64,000 nucleotides of DNA from the NCBI GenBank assembly GCA_965112155.1, contig OZ218103.1. One strand, given 5' to 3'. Positions 4,214-14,146 of the stretch are shown here, piece after piece. The translations under genes were made by a program, and so were the position numbers. The DNA is from Podarcis liolepis. Its lineage: Eukaryota. Each line of letters begins with the position of its first letter. Within the stretch, counting starts at the first letter, position 1. The notes below the pieces were generated by a model, which did no database searches, was not told where the DNA came from, and was given only the letters and a program-made list of their open reading frames with translations.

Positions 4214-4656
4214 CAGTGTTTCCCAACCTTTTTTGGGCAAAGGCACACTTGTTTGATGAAAAAAATCTCGAGGCACACCACCATTACAGCCCCGTGACGT
4301 CAGCGCGCAGCATCATGCCGGGAGGGACGCATGAAAGTGTAAGTTTCAATTTTTTCCCTCCCCTCCTGTGTAAAGGGGAATGCACTCTGCTAAGTAAAGG
4401 CACTTGCCACAGCAGCGTCAACGTCACAGCACCCACCGGCACCCAAGAGAGAAGGGGTCTCAGCAGCCCTTTTGCCAGGAAGAGGAGCAAGAACGAGAGG
4501 AGGAGGAGGAAGAGGAAGAGAGTGCCCCCCAAAAAACATTCTCCTTTTGATCTTCCTTATTTGCAATTCCTCATTGCAAAACAGCGGTTGATATACAGCT
4601 GATTTTTTTGTTATTACAGTCCCCACCCCCTAACCTAGAAAAACACCACCTGTCAA

Positions 4657-4719
<63 letters not shown>

Positions 4720-5271
4720 CATTATTATTATTATTATTATTCCCCGCCACTCTGGGAGGCTGAAGCCCTTTAAGGCTTCCTTCTGTCCACTCTCTGTGAA
4801 TTACCTGCCCGGAGCGGGTTTTGGGGTGGGCGCTGCTGCCGGTGTCCTCCCCGTCAAGTCTCGCCTTGCCCGGTGCGTGGCGGCCGCCCTTTCCCACACT
4901 CTGCCGGCTGCGCTGCCAAGCCCCGCAGCTCGGCCTGTCAGCGTTACCGGGCTCGGCGGGCGGTAATTCCCGAAGAAAGCCGGCGGCGCTTGAAGAGCTG
5001 GCAAGCCCCCATTTGCATGTCTGTTTTCCACAGCCCTTGGAGAGGATTAAGTTCCCTCCTTCCTGCCGGGGAACCTCCAAGCTTTGGGGGTGGGGGGGGG
5101 AGGAGGCAGCAAAGCGAGGCAGGAAGGAGAGCGCGGCTTGGCTACTCGCCGCCGCCACCCCGCCTCTCGCCGCCGGACTCGCCCGCCTCCCTCCAGGCAA
5201 CATCTCGCGGCACACCAGGCAACATCTCGCGGCACACTAGTGTGCCACGGAACAGTGGTTGGGAAACACTG
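4214..5271. mobile_element. Non-autonomous hAT (Charlie-like) element A with CpG-island-like cargo
   Basis: TIR CAGTGTTTCCCAACC...GGTTGGGAAACACTG; perfect 8-bp TSD AATTACAG; both subterminal regions shared with 8897-10311 in inverted orientation. Confidence 0.93.
4663..4741. repeat. (TTA)n microsatellite, probably an L2-type tail inside element A
   Basis: ~26 TTA units followed by ccccgccactctggg, like the L2 ends at ~41690 and ~47195; explains the poly-N stretch in ORF 4571-5215. Confidence 0.85.
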
Positions 5272-6519: not shown

Positions 6520-7300
6520 CCGTATTTTTCGCTCTATAACACACGCCTGACCGTAACACGCACATCGTTTTTAGAGGAGGAAAACGGGGGGGGGGGGATT
6601 CTGAATGAAACAGTGGATGTATCATTTTTGCGCCTCATGCTGTGGCCACAGACATGTGATCTGGTGGTGAATTTGGGGTGACCCAATGCAAAAATCCTGA
6701 GAATCCCTGTGGATCTGTGCTTTGTAACCACGTTTTTGCACCATTGTGGCCCCAGGCAACAGTGGGTGCGTGATTTTTTTGTTGCAGGCTGTAGCCATGG
6801 ACATGCTATGTGATCTGATGGTGAATTTGGGGTGACCCAATGCAAAGATCCTGAGGATCCATGTGGATCCGTGCTTTGTAACCACATTTTTGCACCATTG
6901 CAGCCCCAGGCAACAGTGGGTGCGTGATTTTTTTGGTGCAGGCTGTAGCCATGGACATGTAATGTGATCTGATGGTGAATTTGGCGTGACCCAATGCAAA
7001 GATCCTGAGGATCCATGTGGATCCGTGCTTTGTAACCACGTTTTAAGTGGGGAGGGAAGGAAAAACAGAGAAGGGACAAGGAGCACAAGAGGGGTGTGCA
7101 GAGAAGCAGCTGGCTAAGAATGCAGGAGAGGGGTTTAACGTGAGGGAGGAAAGGAAGGCAAAAGTTTTTCCCCACCCAGCCCCCCAAGCCAGCCCCCCCT
7201 CTCTCTCTCCCACCTGCATGTTTTCTGGCTGCCTGCGAGTCCCTAAAATGCTTCCCTGGACGCAGCAGCACCGGAGCACGGAGTGGAATTAGAAGGAAGG
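6520..7300. mobile_element. TcMar-Tc2/pogo-like non-autonomous element (left end only)
   Basis: TA|CCGTATTTTTCGCTCTATAA terminus shared with 33621 and 53007; right TIR not found, so the end coordinate is approximate. Confidence 0.6.
6652..7043. repeat. Tandem repeat, ~154-bp unit x ~2.5
   Basis: gtgatctg(g/a)tggtgaatttgg recurs at 6656, 6810 and 6964. Confidence 0.9.
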
Positions 7301-8896
7301 ACGTGATGTCACTGTATTGTCAACTGATTGGGGGGGGGAGAGAGATATTGACAAGGCAGATGTTGAGAAAGAGAAAGAATGATGGATCGATTCCCTTTTT
7401 CTAATCCCTCCCAAAAGCTTTTTCTATAAATTGTTGGCTGTGCTTGACAACCTATAGAAATATTGCTGGGGGGGGGGTGTCAGAAAAAGGGATCTGCTTG
7501 TTCCCTTCGCTGCCGTCTGGTAAGAAGCAAGGGGAGGTGAGGAGAGGTGGAGAGAGGGGGAGGAAATGGGTACCCCTTTCTTTGCTTTGGGGAAATTCAT
7601 TTACTCCTTTCCCTTTTGCCCTTACCAGGCAGCAGAGAGAGAACAAACTGATTCACTTTTCTTTCTTTCTTTTTCACAAAACTGGATAAAGAAAGAGGCA
7701 CCATCAGCTCTATTTCTGCCACTTGGGAAGGTGGGGCAAAAATATTGTGGGAAGTCAAAAGAAGAAGAATCTGATTACTGAAATTTCTTGGGGGCAGTCC
7801 ACGAACAACTGGATTGAAGAGGCCTCAATATGGCGGAATACCATGGGAAACAGGACTGAGTACCTGGCCTTAAAATATGTTAGTCCAAAGGAAGAGATGA
7901 GCACTCTCTAAATATTTAATGCACAACTCCCCTTCCCAGTCCTTTCCATGGTTTGGTTTCTCCGTAACAACTGGCTCCTTGACACTGCAGTTAGCTGCCT
8001 TAGGGATCCACAACATGCGAGCAGAACAGACAGAGCCTGGGTTTCAGAGATCTCATCCAGACAGCTCATGCAGAGAGAAATCTATCATAGAAATGTGTTT
8101 ATCAGTCTGGAAAAGATGATGGATTGTGTCGGCTCCGCTGGGAGCTCTTCTTAAAGGGGTGGGGGTGGGGAAGGCTTCAGATGATTTAAGCTTTGCATTC
8201 TGATTTTCACAACTACATTTTTCAGGGGCAATGCTTTCCAAAATTTTGTGCTGAGAAAACTCTTTCCACATCAGCTCATCCGCCGAGGAAGGGGAAGGCC
8301 AGAAGCACTTGCTGGAGTTTGGGTGGGCAGCAGAATGACGAGGGTGGAAGAAATGCCCCATTAACCACTTGCTAGCCTTGGTGGAGAGGAAGATTGCAGG
8401 GAGAAAAGATAACTCGTAACCGTCACAGGAGTTGGGGAAGAGCCAAGATGGTCTAGCAGTAACTGGGAAACTCTTTGCAACTAAGCATGTATTGGGCGCC
8501 ATTTCCTCGCCATTTAGTAATCATATGAGACACATCTGGTTGCTTTTTCAACAGGGAAAGAAAATAACACCGTATTTGATCCCTCCATCCTTGCTGGAGA
8601 TATTTCCAGTCCATGGCATGGTCCACTCTGTCCTGTCTCCACACTAATCAGTTATTTTGTAATAAAAATCTGCACCAAAGTACACAGGCAAGGTTATCCT
8701 GCCTAAAGCCACAAGGGTCCTCAGAAACACAGACATCCTCTTATTGTCAGAGACTCCTGGCTGGGAAGGAGTGGAAAGTTTGGGTACCACATCTCTATAG
8801 CTCAGTGGGCAGAGCATGAAGCTCTTAATTTCAGGGCTGTGAGTTTGAGCCCCACACTGGGCAAAAGATACCTGCATTGCAGGGGGTTAACTAGAT

Positions 8897-10311
8897 CAGT
8901 GTTTCCCAACCACTGTTCCGTGGCACACTAGTGTGCCGCGAGATGTTGCCTGGTGTGCCGCGGGAAAAATTAAAAAATTCGAAAGATTTTTTTTTTAAGT
9001 CAAATTTTCGATTGGGGCGCCGTCACTAGATGACCCCTGGGGTTCCCTCCCGCTCTGCGCCTCCATCCTCCTCCTCCGGGGAGGCCCTTCCTGGCTCTCG
9101 GGAAAGGCTTGGCGGCTGCCACTCACTCACTCGCTCGCCCACCCGTCCCTCCATCCCTGCACCCGGCCTCTCCCCCTCCATCCCCGGCGCGGGGGCTGCC
9201 GGGATCCGTAGTCCCCTCGCCCTTGGGCTCCGCGCCCGCGCGGGGTGCGCGAACTACGTTTCCCAGCGTGGCCTGGCGGGCCGGGCGTTTTGTTTGAAGC
9301 GCTCTTCTCCCGGCCATGGAATGAGCGCAGCGGCGGCGGCCGGGCGGGCAGGGCCTCTTCCGCGCAGACCCCGCGCAGCCTGCCTGCGCCCCCGCGGAGA
9401 TCGGGTGGCAGGATGGAGCCCGGGGATCCCCGCGGAGGCGGAGCGGCGGAGGCTGCCCCCCAGGTAGGGCTGCGTCGGGGGGGGGGTGTTTATTTTTGCA
9501 ATGCTGCATCCGCGCCGGAGGGGACGCATCGGACTGCGGGGAGACCCCTTGGCGGGCGTGCAAGGCAATGCATGCGTGCAGGCGTTGCATGGAGTGCAGT
9601 GCAATGCAATGGCAATGCGGCGCCCTGCATGCATGCATGCAACTTCCACCGGCGCTCCGGACTTGGCAGGTGAGGGGGGTCCCCAGTGGGCGGCAGAGAG
9701 AGCCGGGAGGGCGAAGGGGAGCCGGGGGGGAGCAGCGCTGCTCCCCGAGCCGAGCCCGGGGGGAAACTTCGGCGTCGTTGCGCCGGGTGTTGGAAGCGGA
9801 GGCTGGCGGGGGCCCCTCACCTGCAAAACCTGGTCGCCTCTCATATATTTCGTGCATTGCATTCATCGCCCGCTTTTTCCTTCAAGGAGCTCCCGGGGGC
9901 GCGCGTGGTTCTCCCCGTGTTATCCTCGCAACAACAGCCCTGCGAGGTGGGTCAGGCGAGTGGCCCAAGGGAGCACCCAGGGATTGTCCTGGCCAGGTGG
10001 GGTGATTTGAACCCTGCTCTCTGCCCGGTCTTCGTCCTCATTTAGCCCCCACATGTGCATGACTCTGCATGACTGAGGTTTTCCCCCCTCGTCTTGGCTA
10101 TGGTGTGAGTCTGTGCTGTTAATTAATGGGGTTCTGCCTTCAGAGAAGATGAGCCAGCCCTCAAGGAGGTGATTATGTAATTTGCTAGCAATTCATGTAC
10201 CTCCCGGCGTGACGCTGCGCGCTGACGTCACGGGGCTGTAATGGTGGTGTGCCTCGAGATTTTTTTCATGAAACAAGTGTGCCTTTGCCCAAAAAAGGTT
10301 GGGAAACACTG
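8897..10311. mobile_element. Non-autonomous hAT (Charlie-like) element B with CpG-island-like cargo
   Basis: Same TIRs as element A; perfect TSD AACTAGAT; interior unrelated to A by eye. Confidence 0.93.
9030..9470 (+). promoter_or_regulatory. Captured CpG-island promoter / first-exon-like segment inside element B
   Basis: Very high CpG; ACTACGTTTCCCAGCGTGGC at 9253 (ZNF143/THAP11-type motif); gcaggATGG at 9413, 17 codons MEPGDPRGGGAAEAAPQ, then CAG|GTAGGG at 9463/9464. Confidence 0.6.
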
Positions 10312-10747
10312 AACTAGATGGCCCTTGTTGTCTCTTCCAACCCTATAATTCTATGATTCTATCTTATTGAAGGACACTTCTGTCTAAATGCACAGCTTCC
10401 CTCTGCTCTCATCATCTCCCTTCCCCCTGCTCTGGAGTTAGGGGGTTGCTACCTTCTTCCCTTTTTCTCACCACTTCCTTTCCCTCAGCCCTCTCCTTCC
10501 CCTGCTCCCTCCCACCATCCCTGCCTCCTTAATCTTCCTGCTCAACGTTGCTCCTTGCTCTCCAGGCTGCCTTGCCTGCTTCCTCTTATGCTACATAGTC
10601 TTCTTTCACTTCCACCCCACTTTGCCGCCTCCTCCTCCTCCCCAATGGGGCCTATTCCTAAAGCTCCCAAAATACACAATTTTAGATATAATGGATATGG
10701 CATTAAAAAAAATCCTGAGAAGGTCTGAAATCCAAAGAACGTGTATC

Positions 10748-13819: not shown

Positions 13820-14146
<327 letters not shown>

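Follow-up and report, generated by a model that had tools for sequence, protein, structure and literature searches.

KRBA1 5' end carried by a hAT-like element present at about 1,000 copies in the wall lizard Podarcis liolepis

The 64,000-nt stretch of Podarcis liolepis contig OZ218103.1 analysed here, hereafter the window, contains in an intron of ASTN1 a mobile element, element B, whose interior resembles the start of a protein-coding gene. This raises the questions of which gene was captured, how it was captured, and whether the captured piece does anything at its new site. Our results indicate that element B very probably belongs to a set of about 1,000 hAT copies that carry exon 1, the splice donor, part of the intron and likely the promoter of KRBA1, and that these copies are likely methylated and mostly silent. 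Element B spans 8897-10311, with perfect 14-bp TIRs (CAGTGTTTCCCAAC at 8897-8910, and 10298-10311) and the TSD AACTAGAT on either side, at 8889-8896 and in the same letters at 10312-10319. The left and right transposon ends (8897-9024 and 10192-10311, both plus strand) enclose the cargo, and the interior of element B has a GC content of 0.6-0.76 and a CpG observed/expected ratio of 0.5-1.07, the latter being 0.33 for the whole window. Element B is inserted at an ACTAGAT site in an abundant SINE-like repeat (about 8790-8896 and 10312-10362), and a 154-bp tandem repeat (2.5 copies, 94% matches) lies elsewhere in the window at 6654-7044. Minus-strand ASTN1 exons flank element B on both sides, the nearest in-window one at 13937-14068 (PF19441 matches; gene named astrotactin-1) and the other just left of the window (C6:94487518-94487679), so the cargo is intronic and antisense to ASTN1, in agreement with the first-pass annotation of this DNA.

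The donor of the cargo is KRBA1. It was located in the genome by a pattern that accepts the last bases of the cargo and rejects the element end, and of the 3 places found, one was the donor, another a deleted copy and the third a chance match of short length. The interior of element B matches this single TIR-free locus (G000:C13:2.124-2.128 Mb) as two pieces. Cargo piece 1 (9025-10053, plus strand), which comprises the KRBA1 upstream CpG island, exon 1 and the start of intron 1, aligned with G000:C13:2124342-2125412 over 1078 columns, 987 of them identical and 56 of them gap columns, and cargo piece 2 (10063-10191, plus strand), from KRBA1 intron 1, was identical to G000:C13:2127428-2127556 at 124 of 129 positions. 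The 2,015 bp separating the two pieces in the donor are absent from element B, and the deletion junction (10054-10063, plus strand), where this DNA of about 2.0 kb is missing, is a 10-nt tandem duplicate of the bases that follow. Thus the DNA earlier described as intron-like is indeed KRBA1 intron 1, in two donor pieces and not as one continuous segment. No TIR was present at the donor locus (L021), and the terminal sequence of element B had no match in the 60 kb around it. The left breakpoint of the donor is located at the matching site in a remnant of a repeat similar to the SINE-like host of element B.

The identity of the gene comes from its coding exons. When 283 open frames out of the 285 listed were scanned against Pfam, one KRAB, seven KRBA1-repeat and five weak unrelated matches were obtained, with the KRAB box and KRBA1 repeats downstream of the donor. 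With the KRAB exon as query, KRBA1 of Podarcis muralis, Lacerta and Zootoca was obtained, and comparison of the captured peptide with the annotated proteins put the name KRBA1 to a gene that the first reading had left unnamed. The N-termini are MEPGGPRGGGAAEAAPQ followed by TSTPVD in P. muralis and MEPGDPRGGGAAEAEAAPQ followed by TSTPVD in P. lilfordi, and the annotated proteins run AAPQ/TSTPVD over the splice of the captured exon. The phase-0 acceptor of the KRAB exon lies at C13:2141709, 16.9 kb past the exon 1 donor, and the captured exon corresponds to the first coding exon in the KRBA1 annotations, joining the KRAB exon in frame according to the splice in database gene models. In addition, at least 21 pieces of P. 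muralis KRBA1 matched at 80% identity or more, in order along 38 kb at the donor. The earlier view that element B holds the captured 5' end of a protein-coding gene, and that a genic donor locus exists for it, is therefore confirmed. Two other sequences were seen in KRBA1 introns, namely a long, retroelement-like open frame (L027:1487-2203) and a weak GIY-YIG match (L028:7799-8398) that we take to be Penelope-like.

The motif at 9253, the ATG at 9413, the 17 codons, the GT at 9464 and the ATG at 9321 that had been pointed out before were all in place. The motif ACTACGTTTCCCAGCGTGGC is present at 9253; its full form ACTACnnnTCCCA (9253-9272, plus strand), presumably ZNF143/THAP11-like, has the same letters in the KRBA1 donor and was retained in 24 of 30 copies, and its pattern also matches 3 further places in the 60 kb around the donor. 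The ATG at 9413, in the start context GCAGGATGG (27 of 30 copies), opens the coding part of KRBA1 exon 1 (9413-9463, plus strand), whose 17 codons, MEPGDPRGGGAAEAAPQ, are identical to the P. muralis N-terminus at 16 of 17 residues; the commonest peptide form among the copies, MEPGDPRGGGAAEAEAAPQ, is that of the donor and of P. lilfordi KRBA1. The exon ends at a phase-0 splice donor (CAG/GTAGGG, with GTAGGG at 9464-9469, plus strand), and the sequence CAGGTAGG was retained in all 30 copies. The ATG at 9321, from which MSAAAAAGRAG is read, had been suggested as an alternative start; it is out of frame with the ATG at 9413 in donor and copy alike, and belongs to an overlapping upstream ORF of 48 codons (9321-9467, plus strand) that is also found in the donor. 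The old interspersed-repeat remnant at 9887-10020, earlier labelled MIR/L2-like, is native to KRBA1 intron 1, as had been supposed, matching the donor intron at 98%; one other match, at 79%, is present in the 60 kb surrounding the donor. Based on the CpG island, the presumed ZNF143/THAP11-like motif and the position, the captured region is likely the KRBA1 promoter.

The window alone does not show that element B has about 1,000 copies. A 27-nt pattern over the deletion junction, which is specific to element B, was found at 1,033 places (control, 0), and the motif of the right transposon end at 2,217 places. A DNA search with 9030-9520 of the cargo gave 1,115 candidates; the 40 that were scored were all copies, namely the one in the window and 39 more at 94-97%, with the donor not among them. 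The 20 top-scoring loci (the window's own included) were all full-length elements with their own perfect TSDs, and when the junction places were taken in order of position, 29 of the first 30 were full length and 29 had identical TSDs. At 48 sites read on both strands, 95 of the 96 readings had TA at TSD positions 4-5. A 136-bp element with the same TIRs (L051:260-395) was seen abutting one copy of element B. Helitrons have neither TIRs nor a TSD, and the presence of TIRs and 8-bp TSDs rules out a Helitron type for element B. Judging by its 8-bp TSDs and short perfect TIRs, element B is a non-autonomous hAT element, and the nnnTAnnn TSD consensus of its family matches the one described for the Buster family of hAT (PMC3517528). 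A host fragment between TIR-element ends, a parental locus unlinked to a TE and several distinct TSDs, which together define a multicopy Pack-TIR, were all observed.

The structure of element B, its donor and the name of that gene, the copy number, the internal deletion and the CpG-biased decay were observed directly, and from them we infer the repair and amplification steps as follows. A parent element with GC-rich ends may have been broken, and during repair of the break, by gap repair or a template switch, about 3.2 kb may have been copied in from the KRBA1 CpG island. The captured element would then have been shortened by the 2.0-kb deletion, which left a 10-nt duplicate where the two sides were joined. 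A putative Buster-type transposase could have moved the shortened element in one young burst, and the same parent family may have captured other CpG islands repeatedly, RANBP9 exon 1 among them. L112 has the left 128 bp of element B in common (left ends identical at 122 of 129 positions) and looks like a parent-like element. A pattern for a parent with the element B left end, whose letters exclude L112, was found at 7 places, all of them deleted copies of element B. An undeleted 3.4-kb intermediate was not among the best 40 of 3,274 candidates in a search with 1,501 of the 2,015 bp that element B lacks. Gap repair often leaves microhomology at breakpoints (PMC8277862), and none was seen by eye at the cargo junctions in comparison with the parent-like L112 or element A, from which the true parent may differ. 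The capture might also have been initiated by the transposase instead of by a chance template switch, if it cut or abortively inserted at a site of its preferred kind just upstream of KRBA1 and the lesion was then repaired into the element. The left breakpoint of the donor lies within GACTAGAT, which has the form of the nnnTAnnn target and is identical to the TSD of L097, and junctions without visible microhomology would also be expected from such an origin. However, what borders the cargo is internal sequence of the parent instead of a TIR end, and the element contains just 7 of the 8 target bases. In addition, 8-mers with TA at the centre occur frequently, and the donor locus holds neither an element nor a footprint. 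We consider this route unlikely. Transfer in the reverse direction, by which the KRBA1 start would be a domesticated piece of the transposon, could account for the 92-96% identity between the two, but it was rejected and has practically no probability in our view. The donor has no TIRs and is 2 kb longer than the cargo, the exon-1 peptide is common to Lacerta and Zootoca KRBA1, the Lacerta model starts with MTPGVPS, which is the sequence at the left edge of the cargo, and the element family is young, being merely about 0.6% diverged. The direction was from gene to element, because the donor is longer, lacks TIRs and shares its exon with other genera.

The mutation pattern of the copies bears on whether they are active. 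In 30 copies, one deleted copy being left out, CpG transitions were found at 270 of 7110 sites (3.8%) compared with 58 of 20116 (0.29%) at other C/G, a 13-fold difference, and the median non-CpG divergence was 0.59%. The first-pass annotation had taken the retained CpGs as a sign of unmethylated DNA; protection from methylation was rejected on account of this faster decay, and the copies are CpG-rich because the burst was recent, not because they are protected. CpG losses per copy ranged from 3 to 15, with 6 in the window copy. Since their variance (9.9) is close to the mean (9.0) and the window copy is typical, no protected subset is visible. These results suggest that germline copies of the KRBA1 type are methylated, and the copies are likely mostly silent. 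The pattern of germline CpG decay says little on the somatic methylation of the copies.

A different possibility is that the copies are working mobile promoters or exon traps like HelibatN3. In this reading, which we consider very unlikely, the window copy would start an antisense RNA in ASTN1 that is spliced from 9463 to a cryptic acceptor, and sense copies elsewhere would supply new first exons. The motif, ATG context and splice donor are retained in most or all of the copies as described above, and acceptor-like sites (10488, 12334 and 13942) and AATAAA (12107 and 12546) occur on the plus strand in a crude pattern scan run without a chance control. Moreover, the bat analogue HelibatN3 acts as a mobile promoter (PMC4778049), and with about 1,000 copies a few escapes from silencing are plausible. 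However, the 13-fold CpG decay speaks against active copies, and so does the RNA evidence, which comes from two contig sets and from two raw RNA runs, about 12% of each run being covered; the runs may derive from other individuals, species or tissues. RNA reads were found over the entire cargo on both strands at low depth, and some copies of the cargo are therefore transcribed in some form. The RNA junction looked for at the 9463 donor did not appear, neither as a joint nor as a loose end, among the matches listed for the two runs and two contig sets, and one RNA contig covers 9104-10225 unspliced across that site. The raw-read depth was 0 in the unique flanks 8700-8821 and 10408-10500, and the raw reads carried the family letter instead of the window-copy letter at 9354 (32 of 32), 9616 (20 of 20) and 9877 (30 of 30). 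This pattern fits read-through of other copies. The antisense RNA earlier attributed to the window copy thus found no support in these RNA runs of possibly other origin, and the ASTN1 copy of element B is most likely an ordinary antisense intronic passenger.

The KRBA1 capture is one of several, and the family with the ends of element B has captured CpG islands repeatedly, RANBP9 exon 1 included. The first 30 family members by position comprised 19 of the KRBA1 type and 11 with other GC-rich interiors in six further types, 5 of the 11 being of a second type and 6 spread over five others. A sister family (L099 and L125-L164, at least 40 copies) carries the 5' end of RANBP9, and 36 of the 40 best matches were full-length elements, with the RANBP9 donor not among these 40. 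L128, L134 and L161 are longer forms of it, and L128 contains the whole exon 1 up to the splice donor, which indicates that capture followed by internal deletion recurs. The second type forms a 1.0-kb sister family (L081-L092) at 212-273 places, whose CpG-rich cargo holds TGACGTCA and a donor-like GCGG/GTAAGG and shows CpG transitions of 3.6% compared with 0.43%. The donor of this C-type cargo was not found, as the 2 matches both continue into the element end, and KRBA1 is the sole cargo donor mapped in DNA. Element A (4214-5271, minus strand) has the same TIRs as element B and the TSD AATTACAG. Each of its ends includes a parent-type piece, and its interior, about 690 bp of GC-rich DNA, is its own and matches none of the other cargo types seen. 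Additional cargos resembling CpG islands were observed in L093, L117 and L100. L093 and L117 have a second right TIR close to the left end and a 3' segment in common with L128, a layout that suggests nested or serial capture.

Silencing of the copies might also strike the germline KRBA1 start itself, so that CpGs have been lost there since the capture; we regard this addition to the main account as possible and doubtful. When the donor was compared with the family majority, with two differences beside gaps dropped, CpG transitions amounted to 13 of 191 compared with 4 of 556 at other C/G (P = 1.3e-5), and 12 of the 13 were CpGs present in the majority and missing in the donor, with 1 gain (direction, P = 0.003). 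The promoter and exon 1 alone gave 5 of 91 compared with 2 of 219 (P = 0.025), the donor CpG ratio resembles that of the copies, and two non-CpG differences seem, by eye, to be donor-derived in comparison with the Lacerta gene model. However, this comparison sets one haploid allele against the family majority, without outgroup DNA or uncaptured CpG-island controls, and CpG islands also undergo CpG transitions. The donor differs twice as much at non-CpG sites (1.3% compared with 0.62% in the copies), mostly towards A/T, and local mutation or GC erosion near the contig end could therefore explain its CpG loss. The exon-1 peptide is unchanged from P. lilfordi, which also stands against spill-over, and a second donor for replication was not found for the C-type or RANBP9 cargo. 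The combined account, of serial CpG-island captures by a wall-lizard cut-and-paste family plus silencing that spills over onto a KRBA1 promoter losing CpGs as fast as the copies, is tentative and rather unlikely. If true, it would be an example from a vertebrate, and at a KRAB gene, of epigenetic conflict driven by capture.

In animals, multicopy capture of genes by cut-and-paste transposons is reportedly rare and low-copy. With a young family of 2,217 members, nearly half of them with the KRBA1 start, cut-and-paste capture reaches the scale of bat Helitrons and plant Pack-MULEs. The value of the family lies in this scale, in the serial captures and in a testable donor effect, and not in the single ASTN1 copy. 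About 1,000 copies of one CpG island, of the same age and in varied surroundings, provide a natural test of sequence-only methylation resistance, and with KRBA1 identified as a donor, it can be asked in a vertebrate whether silencing of a TE is harmful to the gene that was captured. The copies also complicate the mapping of short reads and the prediction of genes at KRBA1 and RANBP9. Among the titles and abstract openings searched, no publication on the element B family was found, nor one on capture of the KRBA1 or RANBP9 start.

In the survey of 100 animals by Tan et al. (2021), 4 multicopy Pack-TIR cases (1.4%) are reported, and the examples considered here have 3 to 5 copies (PMC8277862). 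Among them, Pack-hAT-N8_XT is similar to element B in being a hAT with TIR-element ends round a host fragment, a 5' GC-rich cargo, a TE-free parental locus on another chromosome and distinct TSDs (PMC8277862). In contrast to these examples, the element B capture is present at 1,033 copies, in a family with several cargos; captures abundant enough to be catalogued as a TE consensus may escape the method of the survey. At the level of the ends, the Buster-family hAT MITE Mar shares the TSD consensus nnnTAnnn (PMC3517528), and hAT2_NA of Manduca sexta has the same 14-mer TIR and an 8-bp TSD (PMC3845634). Unlike element B, neither is described as having host cargo in the parts of these reports drawn on here (PMC3517528; PMC3845634). 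For the CpG loss at KRBA1, maize offers a model, as the donor genes of TE-captured fragments acquire silencing marks there (bioRxiv 10.1101/777037); however, the maize conflict involves plant siRNA and was measured directly, whereas the KRBA1 case is read from the mutation pattern. HelibatN3 of Myotis bats, like element B, carries the promoter, first exon and partial intron 1 of one gene, with the NUBPL 5' end including the 5' UTR at about a thousand copies, and its family has likewise captured the 5' ends of many genes (PMC4224331; PMC4778049). However, HelibatN3 is a rolling-circle Helitron with demonstrated promoter activity, whereas element B has TIRs and 8-bp TSDs and carries a putative promoter. 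In cargo alone, HelibatN3 is the closest analogue of element B.
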